Of a stretch of 64,000 nucleotides of DNA, positions 37,870 to 52,883 are shown in pieces. The position numbers were made by a program, and so were the translations under genes. The stretch's first letter is position 1. Each line of letters begins with the position of its first letter. The notes below the pieces were generated by a model. That model made no database searches. It was not told the DNA's origin and was given only the letters and a program-made list of their open reading frames with translations. Origin of the DNA: an uncultured Holophagales bacterium. Lineage in GTDB: Bacteria; Acidobacteriota; Thermoanaerobaculia; Multivoradales; UBA5704. The stretch covers positions 768,001 through 832,000 of the forward strand of contig CAWJGT010000003.1 of assembly GCA_963842525.1 (NCBI GenBank). Reading direction: 5' to 3'.

Positions 37870-40527
37870 TGGGCGCGATGAGAAGACATGTGCGCGCCCC
37901 GCTGCGCCGGTTCGCCGCGATGTTCGACCGCGCCCGCCTCGACCGCGAGCTCACGGCGGAGCTCGAGAGCCATCTCGCCATGCACATCGACGACAACCTG
38001 CGGGCCGGCATGACGCCCGTCGAGGCGCGCCGGCAGGCGCTTTTGAAGCTCGGCGGCGTCGCCCAGGTCGAGGAGCGCTACCGGGAGCGCCGCGGCCTTC
38101 CCTTGCTCGAAAACCTGATCCGCGATCTGTGCTTCGCTGCGCGGACGCTGCGCAGGAACCCCGGCTTCACCGCCGTCGCCGTGCTGACCCTCGGCCTCGG
38201 CATCGGCGCCAATACCGCGATCTTCAGCGTCGTCAACGCCGTCCTCCTGCGCCCGCTGCCGTTCCCGCAGCCCGAGCGCCTCGTGCTGGTCTGGGCGACG
38301 AATACGGAGACCGGCGACATGGAAGACGTCGCGACCTATCCCGATTTCGCGGACTGGCGGGCGCGGAGCCGGGCCTTCGAGCGCATGACGGCCTTCACCA
38401 CGCGCGGCATGACGATCGTGGGCCCGGACCAGGCGGAGCTGGTGCCGGCGGTGCAGGTGACGCCCGGCTTCTTCGAGACGCTGGGCATCGCGCCGGCGTT
38501 GGGACGGACATTCCGGCCCGACGAAGGAGAAGCGGGAACTGCCCAGGTCGCGGTGCTGAGCGATAGTGCTTGGAGGCGGCATTACGGAGGCCGCGCGGAC
38601 GTGCTGGGCAAGACGATCCGGGCCAATGAGGAGGCCTGGACGATCGTCGGGGTCATGCCTCCGGATTTCCGTTTCTCTTTCGATTCCGGGCCGCCGGAAC
38701 AGATCTATGTGCCGCTGGTCCGCGACCCGAGCCGCAATCACGGTTTCCTGCGGGTGTTGGGCCGCCTGCGGCCGGGTGCCCCTGTCACTGCCGCCCAGGC
38801 CGAGATGGGTACCATCACGGCGAGCCTTGCCCAGGAATTTCCGGATTCCAACCAGGGAGTCGGAGCGCGGGTCGTGCCGCTCGTGGAGGCTCTGGCCGGG
38901 AAGGCCCGCCTCGCCCTGGTGATGTTCCTCGGCGTCGTCTCGCTGGTGCTGCTGATCGCCTGCACCAACGTGGCGAACCTCCTGCTGGCGCGCAGCGCGT
39001 CGCGCCAGAAAGAGCTCGCTCTGCGGGCGGCTTTGGGCGCCGGCCGGGCGCGGCTGCTGCAGCAACTGGTGACCGAAAGCATCGTGCTCGCGCTGGCGGG
39101 CGGCGCGTTCGGCCTGCTGATCTCGAGTTGGACCGCGTCGCTGCTGGTGAGGCTCCTGACGCAGAGCTTCCAGATTCCACGGATCGAGAGCACGAGCATG
39201 GATGGATGGGTCCTGGGATTCGCCCTCCTCCTGTCGCTCGCGACCGGACTCCTGTGCGGAGCCGTGTTCGCACCCGTCGTCGTGTCGGCGAGCCTGGAGG
39301 AGAGCTTGCGCGAATCGAGCCGGACCTCCACGGGGAGCCGCGGCGGCCGGCGTCTCCGCAGCACGCTGATCGTGACGGAGACCGCGCTGGCGCTGGTCCT
39401 GCTGGCCGGCGCCGGGCTGCTTCTGAAGAGCCTTCTGGTGCTGCACAACACGGCACCGGGGTTCAAGGCGGAGGACGTGCTGACGGTGGATTTCTTCCTG
39501 CCGAAGAACAAGCTCTCCCAACCTCTCGAACGACGGAGGTTCTTCGAGGACGTCCTGGCGCACGCCGGGACGCTGCCCGGTGTGCGCTCGGCCGCGCTCG
39601 TCGCCAACCTGCCCATGAACGGCGGCTGGGACTCAATTGCAATTCCACGTGACGGGCCGGCCGGATCCGGCTCCTGACCAGGGATTCAGCGCGAATTTCA
39701 ACATCGCGAGCCCCGGCTACTTCCGGACCATGGGGATTCCTCTGCGTGCGGGCCGGGAATTCGCCCGGCAGGAGACTGAGACGGCGGGCGGAGTCATCGT
39801 CGTCAACGAGTCGGCGGCCCGCGCGTTCTGGCCGGATACCGACCCGGTCGGCAGGACCATCGAGCTGCCCGTCGACGACGAAACGACAGTCACCCTCACC
39901 GTCGTCGGCGTCACCGGCGATGTGCGGCAACTGGGGCTCGGCAGCGCGCCGCAGCCCGAGATCTTCCTCAACTCCATGCAGCCCGGCCCGCCCTGGCAGT
40001 GGCTCACCCTCGTCGTCCGCATGGCTCCGGAGCGGGCAGCGGCTTTGAAAAACGCCGGGTGGTCCGTGGACCGTGACGTGCCCATCACCCAGGTGCGCAC
40101 GCTCGACGAGGTGCTCTCGGCCTCCCTGGCGGAGCCCCGCGTCTACACGCTGTTGCTCGGCGTCTTCGCGGCGCTCGCCCTGATCCTGGCCGCGATCGGG
40201 CTCTATGGCGTCGTCTCGTACACCGTGACGCAGCGGACGTCCGAGATGGGAGTCCGCCTGGCGCTCGGCGCCGAGCGCAGCGCCCTCGTGCGGCTGGTCC
40301 TGCGGCAGGGCCTGAGCCTGACGCTGATCGGCACCGGGATCGGGCTCGTCGCAGCCCTGGCGGTGGCTCAGCTCCTCACCCGCTTGTCGCCCGAGATCCA
40401 GCCGGGCGACCCGCTGACCCTGTCGGCGGTCTCGGCCCTGCTGCTCGGCGTGGCGTTCATGGCGGCCTACCTGCCCGCGCGGCGCGCCTCGCGCGTCGAC
40501 CCGACCGTCGCGCTGCGGTACGACTAG
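37869..40527 (+). CDS. ADOP-type duplicated ABC permease (MacB/FtsX-like); frameshift near 39635
   Basis: [82 protein letters not shown]. Confidence 0.92.
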
Positions 40528-40599
40528 AGCCGCCCGGTGGAAGGGCGTCCAACAAAAGCTCCCGACTTGGTGTCTTTCTCTCCAGGAGCGAGGAGGGTG

Positions 40600-40874
40600 T
40601 AGAATCAGTCTGCTCTTTGAAAACCGAAGCTCAACGGCCGGCACAGGCCCCCTGCTCTGGGCAAAAGCCATGCCTGACAAGAAACGCGCCAGCGCCAAAA
40701 CGCCAATTTGGCCGGCACATAACTGCTCACCTGGATCTTGAACGGGCTCAGAGGGTTAGCCTCCAAGGAGGTTTGCCCGGACGGAAAAAGCCGAGCTCGT
40801 CGAGGCTCCATTTTCGGAGATAACCGCTCGAGCCACCTTAAGTCCTGTAGAATCAAGAGCCTGGAAGTGCCGCG
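40600..40874 (+). promoter_or_regulatory. Putative CRISPR leader
   Basis: Non-coding, less GC-rich stretch before the first repeat, containing GCTCTTTGAAAAC and TAAGTCCTGTAGAATCAA. Confidence 0.55.
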
Positions 40875-41397
40875 GTCGGAACTGCCCTAATCAGTACGGT
40901 GGGATTGCGACTTCTCCTTGCTGTGCGGGGGGGCGAATCGCTGCAAACGTAGTCGGAACTGCCCTAATCAGTACGGTGGGATTGCGACGAGGCTTCACTG
41001 GACCAACAACCTGACCAGTTCCAGGGGGAACGTCGGAACTGCCCTAATCAGTACGGTGGGATTGCTCAATTAAAAGGCCCCGGAGGGGCTCAAGGCATGT
41101 AGCCCGGGGTCAGAGCGACGAAGGAGCGGCGACCCCAGGTAAGGGAGAAAAAATATTTCCAAGCCCCGGCAGGGGCGGCAGCAGATTTGGCTGGGCACGA
41201 GCTTGCTGCCGCCCCTCTGGGGCTTGGAAACAAAATGGGCCTTCTGACCCGGGGTCGCCGCTCCTTCGTCGCTTTGACCCCGGGCTACACGCCTGAGCCT
41301 CTCCGAGGCTCTTTTTTTGCAACAACCGAGAGTGCGGTGGGATTGCGACGCCACAAGTCGCTGTACACCTTTCGGCGGCCGGGCTTGACAGCGTCGG
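40875..41397 (+). CRISPR. Orphan CRISPR array (37-bp repeat, type III-like), 3 spacers, interrupted by REP-like insertions
   Basis: GTCGGAACTGCCCTAATCAGTACGGTGGGATTGCGAC at 40875 and 40952; at 41032 truncated at ..GGATTGC; 3' half at 41331-41349; GTCGG start at 41393; spacers 40, 43 and 43 bp. Confidence 0.9.
41076..41310. mobile_element. REPIN/MITE-like palindromic element inserted in CRISPR repeat 3
   Basis: GTAGCCCGGGGTCAGAGCGACGAAGGAGCGGCGACCCC inverted against GGGGTCGCCGCTCCTTCGTCGCTTTGACCCCGGGCTAC; inner TTTCCAAGCCCC..AGGGGCGGCAGCA / TGCTGCCGCCCCT..GGGGCTTGGAAA. Confidence 0.8.
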
Positions 41398-41402
41398 GAG
41401 AC

Positions 41403-41477
41403 AAAAATATTTCCAAGCCCCGACAGGGGCGGCAGCAGATTCGGCAGGGCGTCGGTTTGCTGCCGCCCCTCGGGGAC
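41403..41477. repeat. Partial second copy of the same element (inner hairpin)
   Basis: AAAAATATTTCCAAGCCCCGNCAGGGGCGGCAGCAGATT shared with 41149-41187. Confidence 0.85.
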
Positions 41478-42004
41478 TACGCCGCTTCGGGTGGGCTGGC
41501 GACCCGTTCGTACAGCAGGGTGCCGGAGCGGTCGAGCGCCACGGCGCCGGCTGCTTCCAGCAGGAAGGTCAGGGAGGCGGGGGAGACGAGAAGGCAGAGG
41601 GCTACATGGAGCGCTTCGATCAGCCTCTCGTCAAAGAGCTCGAGCCAGCCGATGGGCTCGCCCCAGTCGCCCCGGCTCTGGACGGCATAGCCTTCCTGGT
41701 CGGGCTCGGTCTTGAGGCGGAAGGCCATGTCGCGCCCGATGCCGGGCAGGACGGCGGCGGCCAGAAGGGCGTAGAACGGCGAGACGAAGACTGCAGAGGC
41801 GCGGTGGCCGGCCGCTGCGCTCTCGCCGGCCCGGAACAGACCGAAATGCGCCCCCACAGGCTCGACGTGCCAGGGACCGGCCACGTCGGCCTCGCCCGCG
41901 GTGGGCGGCTCGTCGCGGTCGCCGAAGAGGTCGAGGAAATGGGGGTGGAAGGCGTTGTGCGGATGCAGGGTGCTACCATCGTCGGTGCCACGCATGGGAT
42001 TCAT
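41477..42004 (-). CDS. Hypothetical protein
   Basis: 175-aa ORF with AAAGGAG ribosome-binding site and its own promoter; no recognised family. Confidence 0.65.
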   Translation of the reverse strand: MNPMRGTDDGSTLHPHNAFHPHFLDLFGDRDEPPTAGEADVAGPWHVEPVGAHFGLFRAGESAAAGHRASAVFVSPFYALLAAAVLPGIGRDMAFRLKTEPDQEGYAVQSRGDWGEPIGWLELFDERLIEALHVALCLLVSPASLTFLLEAAGAVALDRSGTLLYERVASPPEAA

Positions 42005-42160
42005 TCTCCTTTGCGTTGGTAGGCCTGGGGTAAGGGCCCTGAACCCTTGCTCCGGGCCGCTTGGTTTCGAGAAACGACGGTTTCGACAAGCTGCGGGTGA
42101 GTCGGCGGGGCTTCTGGGTCGCGACCTCCTTTCGAGACACGGGACGACTGAGCTACCGCC

Positions 42161-42190
42161 ACACTACCGCCCCGTGGTTGCGGCTGTCAA
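42161..42190 (-). promoter_or_regulatory. Putative sigma70 promoter giving a leader of about 150 nt
   Basis: Minus strand TTGACA-18 bp-TAGTGT. Confidence 0.5.
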
Positions 42191-42278
42191 GCCCCTTTTT
42201 CTCCCTGGGGAGCGCAAACCGGATACCGGGGCATGCGGAGCACACCCCGGTATCCCTCCCTCTCACTCCCGCACGGCC

Positions 42279-42680
42279 TCAGCTCTCGGGGTCGGTGTCC
42301 GGAGTGCTCGCCTCGGCGGGCGCGCTGGCCGGCGTCTTGGCCGCCGCCACCGGCTTGCGCGCCCGTTTACGGCGCGGGATCATCCCGAACTGGACCAGCC
42401 GCTCGTTGCGGTAGCCGATCTTCCCCTTCGCCACGGCGCGGATCGCGATGGCCTGGGCCTTGCCGTGGCCCACCAGCTCCCGGATCTGCTGCGTCAGCTC
42501 CTGCCGGCCGGCATTCTGCGCCTCCTGCCGCGCCTTGAGGATCCGCGCATCCGCCAGGTCCCTCTCCAGAGACAGCCGTTCTGGTTCCACGGCGCCGAGA
42601 AGCTCCGCATGCTCCTTGGCGGCGGCGAGCAATCCCTCCCAGTCCTGGACGATGTCGGCGAACCCATTGATGCTGGACAT
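42279..42680 (-). CDS. Small helical/coiled-coil hypothetical protein with a basic tail
   Basis: AAAGGAGG ribosome-binding site; MSSINGFADIVQDWEGLL..RNERLVQFGMIPRRKRARK. Confidence 0.75.
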   Translation of the reverse strand: MSSINGFADIVQDWEGLLAAAKEHAELLGAVEPERLSLERDLADARILKARQEAQNAGRQELTQQIRELVGHGKAQAIAIRAVAKGKIGYRNERLVQFGMIPRRKRARKPVAAAKTPASAPAEASTPDTDPES

Positions 42681-42776
42681 GACGTCTTCCTCCTTTGAAA
42701 AAATCCGCCGCCTCGATTGGCTTCGGATCATTCGGGGCCAAAAAAATAGCTCTGGCCATAATCGGTCAACTAGGTC

Positions 42777-42805
42777 AAGATAAGACAGCTCGCGCACCGT
42801 GTCAA
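42777..42805 (-). promoter_or_regulatory. sigma70 promoter of 42279-42680
   Basis: Minus strand TTGACA-17 bp-TATCTT. Confidence 0.7.
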
Positions 42806-42848
42806 GAGGTCCGAGCGACATTTTCACAGGCTTGAGGGCGGCCCGGTC

Positions 42849-43058
42849 GGCCTCAGGGTCCCGAAGGTGGCCCTCAGACGCGAGCACATGGCCTTCAGGG
42901 GCCAATACCATGCTCCTGGAGGCGAAGCCGACGCCCTCAGAGGCAAGCAAATGGCCCTCAAGGGCAGACCCCTCGCCCTCAGGGGCGAACGCCTCGCCCC
43001 TGAAGGCGAGCGCGTTGACCCCAGGGGCGGGCAGGTGGACCTCAGGGGCGGTTTGGAG
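42849..43058. repeat. 21-bp-period array, 10 units (12-bp conserved core + 9-bp variable part)
   Basis: Core GCCCTCAGGGGC and variants start at 42849, 42870, 42891, 42912, 42933, 42954, 42975, 42996, 43017, 43038. Confidence 0.85.
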
Positions 43059-43118
43059 ATGTCTGGGGGCGGCCGCCTGGACCCAACACAGTGCGGACAA
43101 GACCGGAGCCGGCGAGAA

Positions 43119-43168
43119 AGCCCGGCGATGAATCGCCGGGCTGGCAACAGCGCCCCATGAATGGGGCT
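43119..43168. repeat. REP-like double hairpin
   Basis: AGCCCGGCGATGAATCGCCGGGCT and GCCCCATGAATGGGGC. Confidence 0.75.
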
Positions 43169-43314
43169 TGAAGCCGGGGAGTTGAGGCGCTTTTCCCTTC
43201 GAGTGAGATAATGGGGCTCCCGGCAACAGCTCCCCGATGACTTTTTTGGCGAGAAATTTCGCCGTATCCCGCGGCGAAACACGACATTCGAAGCGATCGG
43301 AAAGGAGGACAAAA

Positions 43315-43786
43315 ATGAACGTTAATCAATTGAAGCGTAACCAGGGTTGGAGGATCGACGCCATCAGTCCGACCGACGTCCACCCGGACGACATAGGGAG
43401 GCTGCATACAGAGATTACACTCATCTTCGAGAAGTCCCGCCGGTTCCAGTTATGGGACTATAAGGGTCAGCAGCCAATGGCATGGGGCCTCCTGGCAGCT
43501 CGTCGGGTGGCAACAAGAGCAAGCCGTGGTCGAAGGGACGCTCCGCAACAGCCAGACTTTCGTGATCACGTTGCCGGAGGCCTCGGACACAACTGAGCTG
43601 CAAGGTCTTCCAAGCCTCAGAGCTGGCCCCCACTCCCGGCCCCGCTTTCACCAGGCCCGAGAAGGGCTCGCGGAAGAGGAGGCCGCGAAGGGGCGAGGCC
43701 GACTTGCTCCCCCGGAGGCAGGTTCCTGGACTGCGCTCGAAGGAGGCGGAACACCGATCCGGCCTCCGCGGGGCGGGTCGGAGTAG
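43315..43786 (+). CDS. Small protein with C-terminal AGSWTALEGG motif (paralog of 47285-47701); 1-3 indels
   Basis: AAGGAGG ribosome-binding site; KRNQGWRI..TLIFEK, then VVEGTLRNSQTFVI, QLSCKV..FTRPEKGSRKRRPRRG and PEAGSWTALEGG in shifted frames. Confidence 0.65.
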
Positions 43787-43876
43787 CGCTGCCAATCGCT
43801 TCTCCCGCGCCATAAAGGAAATACTTTATAGTAGGGCCTCCGGCGGCAGATTTTCAGGTCCGGAACGGAGGTTTCG

Positions 43877-46800
43877 ATGAGGCGCGGCTTCCTGGCCCTA
43901 CTCCTGGTCGTTGGGCTGTTCTCCGGTGCGTCCGCCGTTCCGGGCGGTGCCGGGGAGGACGCTGAGGCCCTCCTCCCCGGCGACATCCGCGAGCGCTCGA
44001 TCGCGGCGGGGAAGGCCGATGCCTACCGAGTCGAAGTCGAGGATGCCCCCATCCTCATCGTTGTCGAGCAGCGCGGCATCGATCTCGTGGTGGAGGTCCT
44101 GGGGCCGGGCGAGCAGGGCTCGCGCGCGGTCGATGCCAGCAGCCGTTGGGGACGCGAGGTCGTTCTGCTGCCGGCCGATGCCGTGGGCCGGCACCGGATC
44201 GAGGTGCGCCCGCTGACGCAGGGTGTACCGCCAGGGCGGTACGTGATGTCCGTCGAGCTGCCGGAGGCCGAGGCGGATGGCGCGCGGCGTCTCGCGGCCG
44301 CATCGGCGATGAGCCGCGCCGGCCAGCTTGCTACGACAGGGAAATCCGAGGCGCTACGCCAGGCCACGGAGGTCTATCGGGAGGCCGTGGAGGGATGGCG
44401 GGCCCTGGGCGAGCGTGTCTGGGAGGCCGAGGCGCTGCATGCCATGGCCTTGACGGAACGGCAGCATGGCGAGCTGCGGGACGCCGCCGACGATTTTGCC
44501 CGCGCCCTGGCACTCTGGCGGGAGCTCGGCGAGAGACGGCGCGAAGCGTCTGCGCTGAACGGCCTCGGGAGGACCCATCTGGGCATCGGGGAGCTCGACG
44601 CCGCGCGTCGAGCCTTCGAGGGCGCGCACGCCCTCTATCACGATCTCGGAGAGCGCTTCGATGAAGGAGAAGCCCGCATCAACCTCTGCCTCGTCGAGCA
44701 GACCGTCGGCGCCGTGCCGGAGGCGCTCGGCTGCTATGAAGAGGTGCGATCGTTGTTCCACGAGCTCGGTGACCAGAGCCAGGAGGCGAGGATCCTCAAC
44801 AGCCTCGGCGGCATCTACAACGACCTGGGACAGCCCGACGCTGCGCTGGACCACTACGGTAAGGCCCTCACCCGGTGGCAGGAGGCCGGCGATCGCCTCG
44901 AAGAGGCCAGGACTCTCAACAACATCGCCGTGGTCTACCGCGCCCTGGGCGAGTGGCAGGAGGCGCTGCGCCTCTACGGACAGGCGCGGGACGTCCTGGC
45001 GCCGCTCGGCGACCGCATCCAGGAGGCGGCTCTGCTCAACAACATCGGCTACACCTACAACAGCCTGGGGGAGCCGCAACGGGCCCTGGTCCTGCTGCAG
45101 GAGGTCCTGCAGCTACGTAAAGAGACGCAGGACCGCCGGGGCGAGCTGATCTGCCTGAACAACATCGGCCTCACCCAGCGCAGCCTCGGCGACCTGGACA
45201 GTGCGCTCGCATACCACCGGCAGGCCCTTGCGCTGGCCACGGAGCTCGACGATCCGCGGCAGGAGGCGGTCACCCGTCTGCTCCTGGCAGAGGTCCTGCT
45301 GGATCGGGCCGATTCAGCCGCCGCGTTGCGCGAGCTCGACAGCGCCCAAACGCTTCTGGCAGAGACGGAGAGCCGCCGTGGCGCGGCCATGGCCCTCCAC
45401 CTGCGCGGCCGTGTGCTCGCCCTCGCGGGCAAGCCGGAGGAAGCCCTGCCAATCCTGCAGGACACCCTGGCCCGGCGGCGGGCCTTGCGCGACCGCGCCG
45501 GGGAGGTCGAGACCCTGCACGCGCTGGCCGCCGTGGAGCGGACTCTCGGCCGCCGGGACGAGGCGCGCTCCCATGCCGAGGAGGCGATAGCCCGGGTTGA
45601 GGAGATGCGGACCGGCTTCGTCAGCCCGGGCCTGCGGGCGGCATTCCTGGCGACGCAACGCCGCGCCTATGCGCTGCTGATCGACCTGCTCATGGACCGG
45701 CATACCGCTGATCCGAAGAAGGGCTACGGCCGGGAAGCCTTTGCCGTGAGCGAGCAGGCCCGCGCGCGCAGCCTGCTCGACGCCCTGTGGTCCGGGAATG
45801 CCTTCCACGCCGGAGGAGCGGTCCCCGCCGAGTTGCTCGAGCAGCGGCGGTCTCTGCGCTATCGCCTGGGAGTCAAGACAGAGCAGCAACTGCGGCAGAT
45901 CAATCCGGGAAGCGAAAAGGCCGAGGCATTGGAGCGGGAGATCGAGGCGCTGCTCACCAGGCTCGACAGCGTGGAGGCCGAAATCCACCGTCTCGCGCCG
46001 CGTGAGGCCGCCCTGGCCCAGCCGCCCACCCTCGGCGTCCAGGAGATTGCAGGGCTGCTCGATCCAGGTACCCTCCTGCTGGAGTACTCGCTCGGCAAGG
46101 AGCGGAGCTACCTCTGGGCGGTCGGAGCCGACCGCTCCTTTCACAGCTTCGTCCTCCCTGCCCAGCGCGAGATCGAGGACCTGGGACGCCGCGTCTACGA
46201 GGACCTGCGCACGGTCGAAGCCGGAGCGGCCGGCGGATCGGACGCGGCGGAGTCCCTGGCACGCATCCTCCTGGAGCCTGTCTGGAGCGAGGCGGCGCGC
46301 AGCCAGCGCCTGGTCGTGGTGCCCGATGCGGCGCTCCATGTCCTGCCGTTCAGCGCTCTGCCGGTCCCCAGGCCCGGCCAGGGTTGGAAAGCCAGCGGCT
46401 CTCGCGAGCCCCTCCTGGACCAGCAGGAGGTGGTCTATCTCCCCTCTGCGGCGACACTGGCGGTGGAGCGGCAGCGGCTGGCGCAACGTCCTGTAGCGCC
46501 GAAAGGAGTGGCGGTGCTTGCCGATCCGATCTTCGCCGCGGACGATCCGCGCTTGGCCGGCACCTCTGTGGCCAGCCGGCAGGCATCTGTCCACAGAGAT
46601 GGGCAACAAGTCTTCGAGCGCCTGCCGTCCAGCCGCGAGGAGGCGAAGGCGATCGCGGGCCTGGCCCCTGCCGGCGGGGTATGGACCGCCCTCGACCTCA
46701 AGGCCAATCGGGACGCGGTGTTGTCCGGCGAGCTGCGCGCCTACCGCGTCGTCCACTTCGCTACCCATGCCATCGCCGATACCCGCAATCCGGAGCGGTC

Positions 46801-47194
46801 CGGCCTCGTGCTCTCGCTCGTCGACGCGGCCGGCCGCCCCCGGGAAGGGTTTCTCGGTCTGCCCGACATCTACGAGCTCGATCTCGGAGCCGACCTGGTG
46901 GTCCTGTCCGGCTGCCAGACCGCGCTCGGCAAGGAAGTCCGCGGCGAGGGGCTCATGGGGCTCACGCGCGGCTTCCTGTACGCCGGCGTGCCGCGGGTCG
47001 TGGCGAGCCTGTGGCGGGTGCAGGATCGGACCACGGCGGACCTGATGTCCCGCTTCTACGAGCGCTTGTGGCGCGGCGGCCTCAGCCCCGCGGCAGCCCT
47101 GCGTGAAGCCCAGCGCTCACTGCGCCGCAGCAATCCGCGCTATCGCGATCCCTACGCCTGGGCCGGCTTCGTCCTCCAGGGCGACTGGCGCTGA
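43877..47194 (+). CDS. Signal-peptide TPR-CHAT (caspase-like) protease
   Basis: Signal peptide, PPC-like beta domain, many EARxLNNI TPRs, VVPDAALH, HFATH and LSGC catalytic dyad, VVASLW, PYAWAGF. Confidence 0.93.
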   Translation: MRRGFLALLLVVGLFSGASAVPGGAGEDAEALLPGDIRERSIAAGKADAYRVEVEDAPILIVVEQRGIDLVVEVLGPGEQGSRAVDASSRWGREVVLLPADAVGRHRIEVRPLTQGVPPGRYVMSVELPEAEADGARRLAAASAMSRAGQLATTGKSEALRQATEVYREAVEGWRALGERVWEAEALHAMALTERQHGELRDAADDFARALALWRELGERRREASALNGLGRTHLGIGELDAARRAFEGAHALYHDLGERFDEGEARINLCLVEQTVGAVPEALGCYEEVRSLFHELGDQSQEARILNSLGGIYNDLGQPDAALDHYGKALTRWQEAGDRLEEARTLNNIAVVYRALGEWQEALRLYGQARDVLAPLGDRIQEAALLNNIGYTYNSLGEPQRALVLLQEVLQLRKETQDRRGELICLNNIGLTQRSLGDLDSALAYHRQALALATELDDPRQEAVTRLLLAEVLLDRADSAAALRELDSAQTLLAETESRRGAAMALHLRGRVLALAGKPEEALPILQDTLARRRALRDRAGEVETLHALAAVERTLGRRDEARSHAEEAIARVEEMRTGFVSPGLRAAFLATQRRAYALLIDLLMDRHTADPKKGYGREAFAVSEQARARSLLDALWSGNAFHAGGAVPAELLEQRRSLRYRLGVKTEQQLRQINPGSEKAEALEREIEALLTRLDSVEAEIHRLAPREAALAQPPTLGVQEIAGLLDPGTLLLEYSLGKERSYLWAVGADRSFHSFVLPAQREIEDLGRRVYEDLRTVEAGAAGGSDAAESLARILLEPVWSEAARSQRLVVVPDAALHVLPFSALPVPRPGQGWKASGSREPLLDQQEVVYLPSAATLAVERQRLAQRPVAPKGVAVLADPIFAADDPRLAGTSVASRQASVHRDGQQVFERLPSSREEAKAIAGLAPAGGVWTALDLKANRDAVLSGELRAYRVVHFATHAIADTRNPERSGLVLSLVDAAGRPREGFLGLPDIYELDLGADLVVLSGCQTALGKEVRGEGLMGLTRGFLYAGVPRVVASLWRVQDRTTADLMSRFYERLWRGGLSPAAALREAQRSLRRSNPRYRDPYAWAGFVLQGDWR

Positions 47195-47284
47195 AGCCCC
47201 GCCAGCTCCGGTGAGATATCTGTCGGCCTCCCGACAGTAGAAAGGAGAACGTCATCCGGACGCAGACCGGAGGAGGGGGACGAT

Positions 47285-47701
47285 ATGGCACTGACAGACT
47301 GGACAAGGACCAAGGGCTGGGACATCAGCTCAAGCCCCGCTCCCAGCGGGGATCCGGGAACAGGGGTATCCAGCGGCACGCACCTTAAATTCGAAGACGC
47401 GGGCGGCGGTACGCAACTGAGGGTCCAGGTCTCCGGCACCGAATGGTCTGGTGTGATTGGGAACTACGACGGAATAGATACCCTTACGGGGGACCTTGGC
47501 AAGCGGACGTTCACGATCGTCCACAATTCCGCCACCAAGAAGTTGGCTTGTACGATCGATCCTGGCTTTTCCCCCCGCTCGCCTCTACTCGGCTTCGGCT
47601 TCAACCGGCTCAAGAAGCGCTCGAAGAAGAGAAAGGATCCGCGCGGAGGTCACGAGGGGCCTAGCGATGCCGGCTCCTGGACGGCGATCGAGGGCGGATG
47701 A
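47285..47701 (+). CDS. Small protein with C-terminal AGSWTAIEGG motif
   Basis: GGAGG-rich ribosome-binding site; intact 138-aa ORF; shares motifs with 43315-43786. Confidence 0.75.
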   Translation: MALTDWTRTKGWDISSSPAPSGDPGTGVSSGTHLKFEDAGGGTQLRVQVSGTEWSGVIGNYDGIDTLTGDLGKRTFTIVHNSATKKLACTIDPGFSPRSPLLGFGFNRLKKRSKKRKDPRGGHEGPSDAGSWTAIEGG

Positions 47702-47812
47702 GCGGCTCGGGGGATCGCTCCTGGCTCTCGCGGTATGATGCTCGGCGTTCTCGGTACACTTCCGGCACGGCCCTTCCGGCCGGTCTGCCAACGCCGAGGC
47801 GCGGCGGGCGCC

Positions 47813-48429
47813 ATGAGCATGGATACGGGACCACAGCCGGACGAGGCGGAGGTCGCGACCGACCTGGTCCGGCGGATTGCGGCCGGCGACACGGTCGCCG
47901 AGGGGCAGCTCGTCGAGCGCTACAGCCGAGGCATCCTCTACCTGCTGCGCCGCCTGGGTGCGCCTCCGGAAGCTCGCCGACGACCTTCACCAGGAAACCT
48001 TTCGCGTCGTGCTGGAGCGGCTGCGACGGAAGGGCCTCGACGAGCCGGCCGGGCTGGCTGGCTTCCTCCGCGGTACGGCGCGCAACCTGATGGTCGCCGA
48101 CCGGCGCAAGGCCGCCCGCCGCAAGACCGAAGCGGACCCCGACGGGCTGGAGCAGGCCGTTCACCCGGGGCCGGGCCAGCTCTCCTCGGTCCTCCACGAC
48201 GAGGAGGCCGAGATCGTGCGGCGGCTCATCGGAGAAGCTCCCGACGGACCGCGACCGGCAGGTGCTGCTGCGCTTCTACGTCGCCGAAGAGGAAAAGGAA
48301 AGCATATGCGCCGATCTGGGTCTGGACAGCCTGCACTTCAACCGTGTCCTCTTCCGGGCCCGCCAGCGCTTCAAAGACCTTCTGGAGCGCTTCCAGGCGC
48401 GCCAAGGGATGGAACCTCGAATGTCTTGA
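47813..48429 (+). CDS. ECF sigma-70 factor (indels near 47965 and 48237)
   Basis: DLVRRIAAGD..LVERYS; ADDLHQETFRVV..GFLRGTARN; RDRQVLLRFY..ICADLG..NRVLFRARQRFK. Confidence 0.85.
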
Positions 48430-48453
48430 AATCTGCAGGAGCAAGGCTACGCC

Positions 48454-49326
48454 ATGAACCACACCTATATCGAAGAAAATCAGGTCGTCGACCGCTACGT
48501 GATGGGCACGCTCCCCGCGGAGGAGGCCGACGACTTTGAAGATCACTATCTCTCTTGCCAGGAATGCCTCGACCGGCTCGATCTCGCCGAGTCGGAGGAA
48601 CGGGGCTTCAAGCGCATGGCGCGACAGGAGGTGGAGAAGGTCTCCGCTGTGCGGCAGCTCGCCCTCGTGGCCTGGCTCGCCCGCCTGAGCCGGTCCCGCC
48701 AGATGGCGGCCCTCCTGATGGTGCTGTTCGTCGTCGCCGTCCTGCCGGGGACTCTCGCGCTGCGCGAGATCCGGGAACGCGACCTGGACCTGGAGCAGAC
48801 GCGCTCGGCCCTGGCGCAGGAGCAGGAGCGGTCAGCCGCAGGCTCCCGGACCGCCGCGGACGCTGAGAAGCTGCGCCAGGATCTCGTTGCGAGGGACCGC
48901 GAGCTCGACAGCGAGCGGCAGGCCCGCGCCCAGGCGGAGGAAGAGCGCGACGCGGCCAGCCAGCCCCAGGGCAACGTCCCCATCCTGTTCCTCGATGCGG
49001 AGCGCAGCGCAGGGCCTTCCGCGGGCGAGCCCACCCAGCAGGTGCCCCTGCCGCAGTCCCCAGGCGGGATCGTCTTCGACCTGGCGATCGACGCGGAGCG
49101 ACATCCGTCCTACCGAGCCATCCTGCGCGACCCCCAGGGACGGGAGGTCTGGCGGGGCGGCGGCCTCCAACTGATGGGCGACACTGGAAGCCCGAGTCTG
49201 AGCCTCAGCCTCCCGTCAAGGCTGTTCGCGCCCGGCGCCTACACCCTCGTCGTCGAAGGGCTTACCCCCGGCCGCAAGCCGGCCGCCGCAGGCCGCTTCA
49301 CCTTCCTCGTCCTGCCCGCCCGCTGA
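48454..49326 (+). CDS. zf-HC2 anti-sigma factor (Zn finger, TM helix, coiled coil, extracytoplasmic beta domain)
   Basis: RYVMGTL..FEDHYLSCQEC (HxxxCxxC), TM LLMVLFVVAVLP, coiled coil, C-terminal PGAYTLVVEG. Confidence 0.82.
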   Translation: MNHTYIEENQVVDRYVMGTLPAEEADDFEDHYLSCQECLDRLDLAESEERGFKRMARQEVEKVSAVRQLALVAWLARLSRSRQMAALLMVLFVVAVLPGTLALREIRERDLDLEQTRSALAQEQERSAAGSRTAADAEKLRQDLVARDRELDSERQARAQAEEERDAASQPQGNVPILFLDAERSAGPSAGEPTQQVPLPQSPGGIVFDLAIDAERHPSYRAILRDPQGREVWRGGGLQLMGDTGSPSLSLSLPSRLFAPGAYTLVVEGLTPGRKPAAAGRFTFLVLPAR

Positions 49327-49541
49327 AGCCCCGGCCCCGCCGGCAGTTCCACGAAATCCTTTCGAATCCCCTGAGCCGCGAACGATCTCATTCCGTGTGA
49401 GATAGCGAAGCCTCTGGCAACAGCTATCCATCGAGATCCAGACCGGCGCACCCCCACTCCTCGTCTGCCGGGAGCAATACGAGAAGCTTTTACACGGCTG
49501 AGGTGGCGGAGAAGCGCGATGCCTTGCCATATAGTTGAGAG

Positions 49542-50264
49542 ATGGCATTCCCTCCCACCCGCCGGTCCGTGGTGCTGGCGGCGCGCGATGCCGACCCGGA
49601 GGTCCGGCGGCAGGCTTTCGGGACGCTCGCCGAGAGCTACTGGAAGCCGGTCTACAAGTACCTCCGCATGAAGTGGCGGACGGACGGCGAGGAGGCCCGC
49701 GACCTGACGCAGGCGTTCTTCGTCCAGGCCCTCGAAAAAGGGACGTTCGACCGCTACGACCCGGACAAGTCTCGTTTCCGGACCTATCTGCGCATCTGCC
49801 TGGACGGCTTCGCATCCAACGAGCGCAAGACTGCCCGCCGCCTCAAGCGAGGCGGGGGAGCCGTCCCCTTGTCCCTCGACTTCGAGGGCGCCGAGGCCGA
49901 GCTTGCGCGGCAGAGCGCTGCCGAGGATCTCGGCCCCGAGGAGTACTTCCACCGCGAGTGGGTGCGCGCGCTTTTCGGCCTGGCGGTCGACGAGCTCCGC
50001 CGGCGGTGCGAGGCCTCGGGCCGGAGCGTCCACTTCGCTCTGTTCGAGCGGTATGACCTGGAGGGAAACGAAGGAGCGGAGCGGCCGACCTACGCCGAGC
50101 TCGCGGCCGAGCACGGCCTCACTGCGACCCAGGTCACGAACTGGCTCTTCGCGGTACGGCGGGACCTGCGCAAGATCGTGCTCGACAAGCTGCGCGAGCT
50201 GACCGGAAGCGAGTCCGAGCTGCGGACCGAGGCCCGCGACGTCCTCGGGATCGAGCTGCCGTGA
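49542..50264 (+). CDS. ECF sigma factor of the Ser/Thr-kinase-associated type
   Basis: FPPTRRSVV, YWKPVYKYLR, ARDLTQAFF, RFRTYL, FHREW, TYAELA. Confidence 0.85.
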   Translation: MAFPPTRRSVVLAARDADPEVRRQAFGTLAESYWKPVYKYLRMKWRTDGEEARDLTQAFFVQALEKGTFDRYDPDKSRFRTYLRICLDGFASNERKTARRLKRGGGAVPLSLDFEGAEAELARQSAAEDLGPEEYFHREWVRALFGLAVDELRRRCEASGRSVHFALFERYDLEGNEGAERPTYAELAAEHGLTATQVTNWLFAVRRDLRKIVLDKLRELTGSESELRTEARDVLGIELP

Positions 50265-50288: not shown

Positions 50289-51656
50289 TCAACCCTGCGT
50301 GGGCTTGAGGTGTTTCAGCGGAGAGTCGGCGAGCAGGGTTTCGAGCTTTCCGATCTGCTCCTGGGTCGAATCCTTCATCCACGGCTCGAGAGCCGCCGCG
50401 TATGCCTCTTCCAGGGCTGATTGTCCGCGTGCCTCATCACCAAGGCCCAGATAGGCTTCGGCCCTCGTCGCCAGCACCCAATACCTGTCGGCGCCTTGCG
50501 GGGCTTGATCGGACTCCAGCCATCGTTCGCAGATGGTGAGGACCTCCTGGCGCACACGGCGTGCCTGCACGAAATCGGCGATCGCTTCCGCCGGGTCGGT
50601 GGCATGCGCGGCCCTGACGTTGAGCAGGTAGGCGAAGTTGATCCCATTGTAATGATCGTTGCGCAGGTAGAAGCCGCGCTCATAGCCGCGTATGGCTTCG
50701 TCGATGTTCATGCTGTCCTTCGTCAGATCCCAGAGCCGCTTGTGCACCGAGCCCCAGAGACCGAGCGTTTCGGTGTCATTGGACGTCTCGGGATTCAGGG
50801 TGGCGAGCAGCTCGCGTGCTTCCTTGAGCGCCGCCTCTTCGGAGGGGTACTTGCTCTTATAGGTGATGAGGGCGAGGCGCTGGATGATGTAGGGGTCCTC
50901 GGTCCTTCCGGGTGCCTCGGTCTTCATCATGCCGCGAATGAAGGCAAGGAAGTTCTTCGCTGCGATGAAGTCGCCTTTCTTCTGCGCCTCGTCCACCTGC
51001 TGCATCAGGAGGCTGTGGGTCGCCTTGGCCTCTGGGGCCGGGCCGCCATCCTGTGCGGAACGTCCCTCCGGCCCCTTATCGGACTTTGCCACCGCCGCGG
51101 CGACAACCTGCGCGGCGGCTGCGAGGATCGGAGGGGTGAGACGGCTCAGGAACGTGTAGACGGGGCTGTCTTTCTTGGCTTCGGGATCCTTCTTCAGGAT
51201 CTCGACGATGGCCTCGGTGAGGAGCTGACGGAACCGCATCACCTCGTCGAAACCGATGTCCTCTCCCAGATGGTGATACTGCCGGACTGCGACGTGATTG
51301 ACGTCAAAGGGGAAGGTTTTGATGCCATCCTCGGCGATGACGACCGTGGTGTACGGGCGCAGCGCATGGCGCACGCCGAGCTCGTAGAACGCGTTCTTGT
51401 TCGACGTCGAAAGGTCGGCGACGACGACGTCCGCGTTCAGGAGCTGCTCGTACATCGGCACGTCGATCAGGCCGGAATGCACGATCTCGTCGGCGCGGAT
51501 ACATTTCAATCCCGCAGCTTCGACGGCCGGCTTGATCATGTTCTTGTAGGATCTGTCGAGATCGAGGGTACGACCGGTCTCGAAGTCCGTCTTCTTGCCG
51601 AATCCCATCACGACGAAGCATGTTCCGGTGGTATTCTCGGGGGTTCCGCTAGGCAT
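50289..51656 (-). CDS. DUF4071/MAP3K TRAF-binding-like protein (NDT-like N-terminus + TPR-S repeats)
   Basis: CFVVMGFG..IKPAV..RADE..ADLSTSNKNAFYELGVRHA..PFD; ETLGLWGSVHKRLW, YNGINFA, YWVLATRAEA. Confidence 0.78.
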   Translation of the reverse strand: MPSGTPENTTGTCFVVMGFGKKTDFETGRTLDLDRSYKNMIKPAVEAAGLKCIRADEIVHSGLIDVPMYEQLLNADVVVADLSTSNKNAFYELGVRHALRPYTTVVIAEDGIKTFPFDVNHVAVRQYHHLGEDIGFDEVMRFRQLLTEAIVEILKKDPEAKKDSPVYTFLSRLTPPILAAAAQVVAAAVAKSDKGPEGRSAQDGGPAPEAKATHSLLMQQVDEAQKKGDFIAAKNFLAFIRGMMKTEAPGRTEDPYIIQRLALITYKSKYPSEEAALKEARELLATLNPETSNDTETLGLWGSVHKRLWDLTKDSMNIDEAIRGYERGFYLRNDHYNGINFAYLLNVRAAHATDPAEAIADFVQARRVRQEVLTICERWLESDQAPQGADRYWVLATRAEAYLGLGDEARGQSALEEAYAAALEPWMKDSTQEQIGKLETLLADSPLKHLKPTQG

Positions 51657-51782: not shown

Positions 51783-52883
51783 ATGTGGATCTCCGACGAC
51801 TCCCTGCGTCATCTGCGGGAGGTGACCGACCGTCCCGAACTGTCGGGCACCCGCTACGAGCTCGTCGAGACGATCGGACGCGGCGGCATGGGGACGGTCT
51901 GGCTCGCCCGCGACCGCGATCTCGACCGGGAGGTGGCGCTCAAGGTGGTCCACCTGCCCGAAGGAGAGGGCCAGGAGACCGAGAGGATGCTCCGCGAGGC
52001 GCGCATCCTCGCCCGCCTCGAGCACCCGGGCATCGTGCCGGTCCACGACGTCGGCCTCCTGCCGGACGGCCGCGTCTTCTACGCGATGAAGCGGGTGCGC
52101 GGGAGCCGTCTGGACGAGCACGCCCGGACCCTTCCCCTGACCGGCCGGCTGCGCGCCTTCGAACGGATCTGCGAGGCGGTCGCTTTTGCTCACGCCCATG
52201 GGGTCATTCATCGCGATCTCAAGCCCGAGAACGTGATGGTCGGACCGTTCGGCGAGGTGCTGGTGCTGGACTGGGGGGTGGCGAAAGACCTCACCCCCTG
52301 TCCCCCTCTCCCATCGCCCCCCCTTCCGCCGGGAGAGGGGGAACGCAGTTGGTGCTCTGAGAAGGTAGCTTGCAGTACACCCTCAGGGATTTCCTCCTCA
52401 AAAAGCCTGGACCTCGCCGGCAAACCTGAGCTGGGTCCCCCCTCTCCCGGCGGAAGGGGGGGCGATGGGAGAGGGGGACAGGGGGTGAGGTCTTCGACCG
52501 CCCATGGTACAGTCCTCGGCACGCCGGGATACATGGCGCCTGAGCAGGCGCGGGGCGAGGTGGAGCGGATCGACGAGCGGACGGATGTGTATGCGCTTGG
52601 CGCGATCCTCGCCTACCTGCTGGCGGGCGAGGAGCCGGTGCACCGGCCGCTTGATGCCATCCGCCGGCGGGCCATGGCCGAGGCGCCGGAGCAGCGCTAT
52701 CCGGGCGTGCAGGAGCTGGCAGCCGACCTCTCCCGGTACCTGGCCGGGCTGGCGGTCTCGGCCCACCGGGAGGGGCTCCTCGAGCGGGTGGGACGGTTCG
52801 TCCGCCGCTACCGGACCCCGATCCTGCTCATCCTCGCCTACCTGCTGGTGCGCGCCATCCTCCTCCTCGTGCTCGGCCGCTGA
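51783..52883 (+). CDS. Hanks-type Ser/Thr protein kinase with a 70-codon insertion in the activation loop
   Basis: GRGGMG, VALK, HRDLKPEN, DWGVAK..GTPGYMAPE, DVYALG; C-terminal TM helix. Confidence 0.92.
   Translation: MWISDDSLRHLREVTDRPELSGTRYELVETIGRGGMGTVWLARDRDLDREVALKVVHLPEGEGQETERMLREARILARLEHPGIVPVHDVGLLPDGRVFYAMKRVRGSRLDEHARTLPLTGRLRAFERICEAVAFAHAHGVIHRDLKPENVMVGPFGEVLVLDWGVAKDLTPCPPLPSPPLPPGEGERSWCSEKVACSTPSGISSSKSLDLAGKPELGPPSPGGRGGDGRGGQGVRSSTAHGTVLGTPGYMAPEQARGEVERIDERTDVYALGAILAYLLAGEEPVHRPLDAIRRRAMAEAPEQRYPGVQELAADLSRYLAGLAVSAHREGLLERVGRFVRRYRTPILLILAYLLVRAILLLVLGR
52285..52494. mobile_element. 210-bp palindromic element with perfect 57-bp inverted arms, in frame inside the kinase
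   Basis: AAGACCTCACCCCCTGTCCCCCTCTCCCATCGCCCCCCCTTCCGCCGGGAGAGGGGG and its exact reverse complement ending at 52494. Confidence 0.92.

Follow-up and report, generated by a model that had tools for sequence, protein, structure and literature searches.

A family of small, predicted beta-barrel proteins encoded beside TPR-CHAT protease and sigma/anti-sigma factor genes in a Holophagales bacterium and its relatives

CHAT-linked regulators and the locus described here

The coupling of a TPR-CHAT protease to a sigma factor of the extracytoplasmic function (ECF) type has a precedent in Myxococcus xanthus, in which DdvS, an ECF sigma factor, is paired with DdvA, a transmembrane zinc-finger anti-sigma factor with a periplasmic TPR-CHAT region, as described in two reports (PMC11506125, PMC6061681). 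In the former, fused forms of the DdvA type are reported only from Myxococcota and one Comamonas (PMC11506125). Here, we describe a locus in which the corresponding parts are encoded by separate genes. It lies in a stretch of 64,000 nucleotides (hereafter the window) from an uncultured Holophagales bacterium, positions 768001-832000 of contig C3 in a 34-contig, 9.95-Mb assembly (G000), and consists of a small gene A, a TPR-CHAT protease gene, a second small gene B, an ECF sigma gene and an anti-sigma gene, all on the plus strand and in the order read in a preliminary description of this DNA (Table 1). Our analysis indicates that A and B belong to a lineage-restricted family of small proteins, predicted to fold as eight-stranded beta-barrels, whose genes almost always keep to the 3' end of the CHAT gene and are for the most part preceded by a promoter-like element.

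The likeness to DdvS/DdvA includes an ECF sigma factor, a single-pass anti-sigma factor with an N-terminal H-x3-C-x2-C motif, and an extracytoplasmic TPR-CHAT protein with a His-Cys dyad, and proteolysis of the anti-sigma factor by CHAT is proposed in both systems. In DdvA, however, CHAT is fused to the anti-sigma factor, whereas here the two are separate genes, as they are in 14/14 relatives' loci that have both; the CHAT protein of the locus is Sec-exported, and its anti-sigma factor has a small beta-sandwich ectodomain of its own. The element before the small genes (GTGAGATA-N14-GACAG before B) also differs from the DdvS promoter, GTAA-n16-CGT. In addition, the present system has a small barrel gene as an added constant partner, and several paralogous copies of the module occur per genome.

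A further link of this kind is found in craspase, a cytoplasmic, RNA-guided system which comprises type III-E Cas7-11 and the TPR-CHAT protein Csx29, with Csx30 as its substrate and a sigma factor. Craspase is comparable in that a TPR-CHAT protease is linked to sigma control through cleavage of a partner protein (PMC10028731). The protease of our locus differs in carrying a signal peptide and being exported; a scan of 38 window proteins gave no Cas domain, and the small protein, being without any family match, is as far as tested unrelated to Csx30. In Actinobacteria, ECF54 sigma factors are regularly encoded near TPR-CHAT proteins, with no anti-sigma factor and with a predicted promoter GTATCAG / CTCC, according to the ECF classification supplement (PMC7826278); the likeness to our locus is that of an ECF sigma gene near CHAT proteins with TPRs, and the differences are the zinc-finger anti-sigma factor and the different element found here. 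A parallel of another sort is offered by the staphostatins (MEROPS I57), small signal-less beta-barrels of Staphylococcus that are encoded next to secreted staphopains (C47) and inhibit by substrate-like binding with a glycine at P1 (PMC7863939). Our locus likewise has the gene of a small, signal-less, predicted barrel beside that of a secreted cysteine protease, but no likeness in sequence between the two barrel families is detectable, and the protease here is of the caspase-like (CHAT) and not of the papain-like kind.

In full-text searches of the literature on CHAT and ECF proteins, and in the available part of the ECF classification supplement (PMC7826278), we found no description of a split CHAT/ECF module with a small barrel partner. 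What is new here is the unnamed small-protein family and the candidate promoter; an ECF sigma factor with an extracytoplasmic TPR-CHAT protein is already known from DdvS/DdvA.

The small-protein family and its tie to CHAT

The preliminary description had proposed that A and B, although very divergent, are paralogues of no named family that share a C-terminal AGSWTAxEGG motif conserved at the protein level, and the present results bear out each part of that proposal. Over the six-frame translation of the genome, 19,899,390 residues in all, the pattern AGSWTA.EGG is matched exactly twice, once at the end of A and once at the end of B. Between the two copies, six of the ten codons differ synonymously and one non-synonymously, which places the conservation at the protein level. 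With B as query, tblastn against the genome gave the A region as the best non-self match (E 0.017). A family profile built from four relatives, with B left out, was run over the 213,548 six-frame open reading frames (ORFs) of the genome and recovered both B (E 2.5e-29) and, at E 5.8e-7, the ORF that holds frame 2 of A (43397-43783); since the next match stood at E 0.22, A is a true family member, and at the sequence level A and B are real paralogues of one protein family.

The four relatives (P0002, P0003, P0004 and P0007; E 1.2e-22 to 5.4e-4), all of which carry the common tail, were the credible matches of a phmmer search with B over 1.84 billion representative proteins; two long repeat proteins, P0005 and P0006, matched within residues 24-96 alone and were left out. 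Two of the relatives, P0002 and P0004, are metagenome singletons, the longest contig being 4083 nt, about the length of two small genes and one CHAT gene, and may flank CHAT as A and B do. Scans of Pfam and NCBIfam gave no credible match for any of the 16 rows of alignment A2, B included. A word-index protein search with B returned, from 11 candidates, B itself alone; the ESM Atlas gave no usable match for the small protein; the family profile met only weak antibody heavy-chain rows among PDB sequences (E at least 0.011), which we took as noise; and a search with the A1 pattern gave 22 matches on genome contigs and 281 on metagenome contigs, none of them confirmed by tblastn. Against 61 related genomes, B gave weak matches only, two of which (E 2.5 and 2.8) were later shown with the profile to be syntenic; a match in G002 was a chance AGSW in a non-coding frame. 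Family members are about 110-150 residues long, and W12, L34, W54 and A134 are invariant in A2.

The family is narrowly distributed and closely associated with CHAT. A class-wide profile search found it in 8 of 301 genomes, all of one order, at 10 places; nine of these are CHAT loci, the co-location for which the preliminary description had proposed such a search. For synteny, we used the 16 best anti-sigma matches from the 61 related genomes. CHAT adjoins the sigma/anti-sigma pair in 14 of these loci (of the other two, one has no CHAT within 8 kb and one is cut by the contig end), so that the module to which the preliminary description had tied A and B is conserved in relatives. A small gene occupies the gap between CHAT and sigma in 10/16 loci, as a tandem pair in L023, and eight of the 10 have a W-[TV]-A tail; in L033, which has no such gap, a family member lies 3' of the anti-sigma gene. 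The order of the genes also varies. G021 has sigma and then anti-sigma ahead of CHAT, and a small gene (E 2e-14, ending GGGSWTAEAGG) follows 55 nt after CHAT; G037 likewise has the sigma pair on the opposite side of CHAT from its small genes, which are three paralogues placed after CHAT. Among the 15 loci with a visible CHAT 3' end, 12 have a small gene directly after it, counting genes recognized by position. Because the small gene stays after CHAT in both gene orders, its closest tie is to the CHAT 3' end. The small protein also diverges faster than its neighbours, with 21-32% identity between syntenic copies vs 42-63% for CHAT and 46-65% for the anti-sigma factor.

The source genome has at least two further CHAT-sigma-anti-sigma modules and about 10 close CHAT paralogues (at least 49% identity). 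Paralogous sigma/anti-sigma pairs with an unbroken sigma gene lie at ~17.1-21 kb of contig C24 and at ~193-197 kb and ~1020 kb of C3, two of them with CHAT upstream. A gene of 149 aa in a CHAT-sigma gap at ~194.8-195.8 kb of C3, ending ...GVWGADD, is possibly a distant member of the barrel family.

The protease itself is well defined. Its CHAT domain (Pfam PF12770) scores 243.5 bits against a cut-off of 24 (E 4.1e-72) and covers profile positions 3-289 of 289, and its TPR array matches many Pfam TPR families (TPR_12 at E 4.2e-69). The His-Cys dyad, earlier described as intact, corresponds to H964 and C1013 and is invariant in 9/9 aligned orthologues. A signal-peptide-like N-terminus is present in the window protein (hydropathy 2.31) and in 9/9 orthologues, while 15/16 small proteins have no hydrophobic N-terminus. 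The preliminary description had flagged this mismatch of compartments for A and B; with CHAT exported and the small proteins signal-less throughout the relatives, it proves to be general.

An AlphaFold model of B, made from the 16-row alignment, has a mean predicted local distance difference test score (pLDDT) of 77.8 and a predicted template modelling score (pTM) of 0.68, with eight strands at residues 12-16, 33-38, 44-48, 57-61, 66-71, 74-81, 86-92 and 130-136. On this model the small protein is predicted to be an eight-stranded up-and-down beta-barrel. A wide structure search matched eight-stranded up-and-down barrels at Z 8-10, among them designed barrels, D-aminopeptidase's barrel domain, avidins, lipocalins and Cap15 (Z 7-10 over the avidins, lipocalins and designed barrels), and the protease inhibitor potempin E at Z 6.7, modest values from which we claim the barrel architecture and not membership of a family; Foldseek with the same model gave no match at E <=0.001 and calycin-type proteins at weak scores. 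The motif forms predicted strand 8, and the last ten-residue block has a pLDDT of ~90, whereas the long, variable loop at ~101-130 between strands 7 and 8 has 52-56. In the model, W12, L34, W54 and A134, together with the L-x-C of strand 7, are residues of the kind that would make up a barrel core. Of the 14 motif-bearing members, eight continue for 11-34 residues beyond the motif, so a free C-terminus is not a feature of the family. We suggest that G-[SGT]-W-T-A-x-E-G-G is conserved because the last strand is predicted to close the barrel against the N-terminal tryptophan strand, a role that would account both for its co-conservation with that tryptophan and for the C-terminal extensions.

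Table 1. Coordinates of the genes, motif copies and promoter-like elements in the window
Feature	Position	Strand	Remarks
Small gene A	43315-43786	+	three-frame translations
TPR-CHAT gene, 1105 aa	43877-47194	+	Pfam; signal peptide, beta-sandwich, TPR array, CHAT domain with H964/C1013
Small gene B, 138 aa, intact	47285-47701	+	member of the small (predicted) barrel family
ECF sigma gene	~47813-48429	+	split over three frames
Anti-sigma gene, 290 aa	48454-49326	+	zinc-finger, single-pass
AGSWTALEGG copy in A	43718-43747	+	one of 2 genome matches
AGSWTAIEGG copy in B	47669-47698	+	predicted strand 8 of barrel
Element before A, GTGAGATA-N14-AACAG	43203-43229	+	24.8 bits, second in window
Element before B, GTGAGATA-N14-GACAG	47211-47237	+	31.1 bits, first in window
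Weak third copy, GTGAGATA-N14-AACAG	49397-49423	+	13.9 bits, third in window; after anti-sigma, before second ECF-like sigma

The sigma pair, its frame breaks and a promoter-like element

The ECF sigma gene is found where the preliminary description had placed it, but is split over three frames, a feature absent from that description. DNA alignment with three relatives puts one extra A at ~47970 and one at ~48235, both insertions in the window only, and relatives carry the gene in one frame. The middle piece alone matches Sigma70_r2 at E 0.016 (15.4 bits, below the cut-off of 24), the window pieces match intact relatives' genes at 55-87% identity, and the same-genus orthologue (L026) scores 47.3 bits with the sigma70-ECF model TIGR02937 (cut-off 42.9). 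The anti-sigma factor had been called a zf-HC2 membrane protein. Its zf-HC2 (PF13490) score of 18.7 bits (E 0.002) falls below the Pfam cut-off of 22.2; the H-x3-C-x2-C motif (H31, C35, C38) is nonetheless invariant in 12/12 orthologues, and the membrane helix is present (hydropathy 2.57 at residue 85). Its AlphaFold model has an N-terminal H-x3-C-x2-C domain, the membrane helix, long helices and a C-terminal beta-sandwich, the last with generic Ig-like and CopC-like structure matches.

Gene A is also broken. Frame 1, from 43315 to ~43435, holds the N-terminus (MNVNQLKRNQGWRI...TLIFEKS), matched by family members at E 0.002-0.017; frame 2, from ~43442 to 43585, holds the core (GSSYGTIRVSSQWHGASW...GTLRNSQTFVI); frame 3, from ~43590 to 43694, holds the L-x-C strand and basic patch, likewise matched by family members; and frame 2 again, from 43697 to 43786, holds the tail with the motif. 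Two of the three frame changes previously proposed stand, near 43575-43590 and 43695-43710; the first lies near 43436-43460 and not at 43490, about 40 nt earlier. Compared with the window, a soil-metagenome contig from a related organism shows a change of -3 at 43578 and of -1 at 43589 and has, between 43610 and 43705, 35 nt in place of 94. The changes add up to -63, so by arithmetic frames 2-3-2 of A would be a single open frame in the related contig. That metagenome, kept as contigs, was the sole match among public sequencing runs (0.07 of the words) and stems from related organisms, 27 of the 33 contigs aligned to the stretch being <95% alike; no RNA run among the public runs listed matched the stretch.

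To place these breaks in the context of the assembly, frame switches were counted over whole contigs with a codon-usage model and a seven-state Viterbi path, keeping same-strand switches with the old-frame stop >100 nt past the junction. Contig C3 had 223 switches (196 of them +1) in 1.67 Mb of coding sequence, C9 236 (193) in 1.54 Mb, C1 129 (103) in 0.61 Mb and C34 113 (92) in 0.68 Mb; over all four contigs this makes 701 switches in 4.51 Mb, of which 584 (83%) are +1, a bias opposite to that at true gene boundaries. The same script found one switch in 400 kb (0.33 Mb coding) of a related genome vs 66 and 49 in equal slices of the source genome, and it independently recovered both sigma breaks. 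We conclude that spurious extra bases occur in the assembly, in clusters, at a rate of roughly one in 6-7 kb of coding sequence. With +1 frame switches so abundant in the genome, assembly error, and not decay, is the most likely source of the breaks in A and sigma. Elsewhere in the window, a break at ~58127 divides a GH113 domain into pieces matching Pfam profile positions 9-128 and 130-273, and a MacB/FtsX-type permease is apparently split at ~39631. Hundreds of such single-base insertions affect every gene call made on this assembly.

Lining up the 170 nt 5' of each small gene revealed a shared element composed of GTGAGATA, 14 unconserved G+C-rich bases and GACAG. A weight matrix made from ten relatives' sites only was scanned over both strands of the window, where its two best sites lie before B and A, with the same spacing at each; most of the relatives' small genes also have the element before them, and the weak third copy corresponds in place to strong copies (22-32 bits) that relatives have after the anti-sigma gene, before varied genes. 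In L029, which has no small gene, the element stands directly 5' of sigma (34.2 bits), and it also precedes the small gene of G021 and the stray family copy of G026. The exact pattern has 36 matches in 19 of the 61 related genomes vs 1 for the backwards pattern, and none in the 15 genomes without an anti-sigma match. The element keeps a fixed spacing and a single orientation, lies ahead of start codons and occurs together with the sigma family, from which we infer that it is a candidate cognate promoter of the adjacent ECF sigma factor, which would make the barrel a signature member of the regulon.

Genome-wide, the source genome has 20 sites of at least 15 bits vs 6 in its reversed sequence. 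Besides those of A and B, four exceed 22 bits, two before TIR_2 genes on contig C12 and two on C30. The TIR_2 genes are a tandem pair (L072, C12:115436-117550; 42.3 and 43.1 bits, cut-off 28), each with its own element (33.0 and 29.3 bits), so that the element may switch on defence-type genes. This pair lies just downstream of another sigma-like gene. The C30 elements (L073, 65116-65147 and 72664-72695; 22.4 bits each) precede ORFs of 109 and 354 aa, for neither of which Pfam gave a family; a tail-sheath-like N-terminus read by eye in a C30 gene was dropped for that reason. In G019 an element (22.5 bits) also lies upstream of CHAT, before an unrelated 157-aa ORF (L023:3181-3808). A sigma-70 promoter scan gave no sites, and a terminator scan gave 4 vs 3.2 expected. 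Of two rows obtained with Rfam for 42800-49700, both sub-threshold, one is an Acido-Lenti-1 small RNA match at 43121-43168 on the plus strand (22.9 bits, gathering score 37, E 0.067), ~35 nt 5' of the A element.

The neighbourhood of the locus includes a second ECF-like sigma gene at 49542-50264 (TIGR02937, 52.8 bits), followed by the gene of a TPR-S / MAP3K_TRAF_bd protein at 50289-51656 on the minus strand, which is convergent, and that of a Ser/Thr kinase at 51783-52883. Upstream of A, the region 40500-43300 has a G+C content of 0.59-0.63 vs ~0.68-0.71. Two minus-strand ORFs lie there, at 41477-42004 and 42279-43226, neither of them in a Pfam family, and a weak match to the second (28% identity) lies upstream of CHAT in L028.

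A proposed circuit and competing explanations

It is tempting to read the locus as a split form of DdvA. In such a circuit, the periplasmic TPR-CHAT protein would sense a signal and clip the ectodomain of the zinc-finger anti-sigma factor, and the released sigma factor would then switch on the barrel genes and other targets. The barrel would stay in the cytoplasm and act on the protease, perhaps as a staphostatin-like guard or inhibitor of the unexported precursor, thereby providing feedback. B, sigma and anti-sigma would form a self-activated operon, while A, and then CHAT, would have a promoter copy of their own. We propose the staphostatin-like part because the gene lies close against the stop codon of CHAT in either gene order and is predicted to encode a small signal-less barrel, as staphostatins do for staphopains. 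The descriptive part of this account, taken alone, we hold with considerable confidence, and by analogy with DdvA it is reasonable to suppose that an exported CHAT protease gates an ECF switch. The promoter function, the protease target and the role of the barrel are what we would infer from these comparisons. The whole statement, from the lineage-restricted barrel family and its CHAT neighbour to the promoter and the circuit, seems to us evenly balanced. A staphostatin-like role for the barrel, on its own, is a tentative suggestion that may well prove mistaken, and the fuller idea that the barrel is a sigma-induced cytoplasmic inhibitor or safety catch, co-evolving with each paralogous CHAT/ECF module in parallel circuits that possibly drive defence-type genes, is rather unlikely.

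Several observations weigh against this account. The fold comes from one AlphaFold model on a shallow alignment of 16 rows, its Z values of 8-10 are only modestly above the background for unrelated barrels, and staphostatin was absent from the best 50 matches listed in each of two structure searches. The positional small genes of L031 and L034 are without the W-T-A motif, three of the 15 loci with a visible CHAT 3' end (L033, L035 and L051) have no small gene after it, and G026 has a family-like gene with no CHAT, sigma or anti-sigma within ~7 kb. A Sec-exported protease has no a priori need for a cytoplasmic inhibitor. The halves of the element differ from the DdvS promoter and from AAC/CGT, the common ECF promoter pattern. 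Lastly, the genome has on average about one break per 6.4 kb, and the five that fall here in 1.1 kb, next to 4.6 kb of unbroken genes, exceed that density.

The barrel could stand in other relations to the protease and the sigma factor. In the preliminary description, the C-terminal AGSWTAxEGG was a free peptide, either cleaved by CHAT or docking on its TPRs, which would make A and B substrates or activators. C-terminal peptides are known to be bound by TPR domains and to activate proteases, such as DegS, and the tight link to the CHAT 3' end in both gene orders, the long disordered linker before the motif, the six of 14 motif-bearing members that end within five residues of it and the extension of E-G-G beyond the predicted strand would all suit that idea. 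It is nevertheless disfavoured, and we consider it very improbable, as the motif is confidently predicted to be an integral barrel strand, is conserved together with the core tryptophans W12 and W54 and with L34, is followed by further residues in eight of the 14 members, and belongs to proteins that carry no signal for export, unlike the protease. Sharing a cytoplasm with the sigma factor and the N-terminal domain of the anti-sigma factor, the barrel might instead bind one of these, as an anti-anti-sigma factor or an extra brake, with feedback on its own operon. This would fit its place as first gene of a putative self-activated operon in 10/16 loci, and amphipathic or hydrophobic stretches in several loops could hold it at the membrane; yet in G021 and G037 the small gene stays with CHAT and not with sigma, and L029 has sigma, anti-sigma and element without any small gene, so that we regard such a role as improbable. 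Perhaps, again, the barrel is a mere output of the regulon, a ligand-binding or defence-related effector that adjoins CHAT through shared regulation only. The element does precede very different genes, such as those of secreted and TPR proteins after anti-sigma and the TIR_2 genes of C12, and the small gene evolves fast, is readily duplicated (into A and B here, into two copies in L023 and into three in L048) and keeps the element in the one copy away from any CHAT. That the gene directly adjoins the stop codon of CHAT in either gene order, and in 12/15 loci, goes beyond what shared regulation would require, however, and we rate this explanation as rather unlikely, though less so than the other two.

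The reading of the DNA itself also has its rivals. Instead of an ECF promoter, the element might be the operator of some other regulator, or an RNA element that is transcribed, as its spacer is G+C-rich and often palindromic (CTGTCGG..CCGACAG at B) and its conserved halves depart from the usual ECF pattern. That the spacer is fixed at 14 nt without conserved sequence, that the element has one orientation 40-120 nt 5' of start codons, that it stands directly before sigma where no small gene intervenes and co-occurs with the anti-sigma family across genomes, and that no Rfam family reaches threshold in 42800-49700 all speak for the promoter, and we think the operator or RNA explanation improbable. 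If, on the other hand, A and sigma were true pseudogenes, the system would be non-functional in the source organism. Within ~1.1 kb the reading frame does change three times in A and twice in sigma, the 4.6 kb of CHAT, B and anti-sigma have no break, and three paralogous sigma genes of the same genome are unbroken. Against decay stand the genome-wide rate of in-gene switches with its +1 bias and the near absence of switches from the related genome, the clustering of switches elsewhere in the genome, the nature of both sigma breaks as single extra A's, and the good protein-level alignment of all gene pieces, with no stops or deletions; decay is thus unlikely, and assembly error remains our preferred explanation of the breaks.

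CHAT-ECF coupling is known from one studied case, DdvA/DdvS. The split form described here is easier to study, in that protease, anti-sigma factor and small partner can be expressed separately and mixed, the putative target promoter is clear, and several paralogous copies per genome allow specificity swaps. The conserved tail of the small-protein family would also gain, through the predicted barrel, a testable structural reason. If the barrel is indeed a dedicated partner, these bacteria would run several parallel protease-inhibitor-sigma circuits and, since TIR-domain genes carry the same promoter-like element, these circuits may drive defence-type genes.

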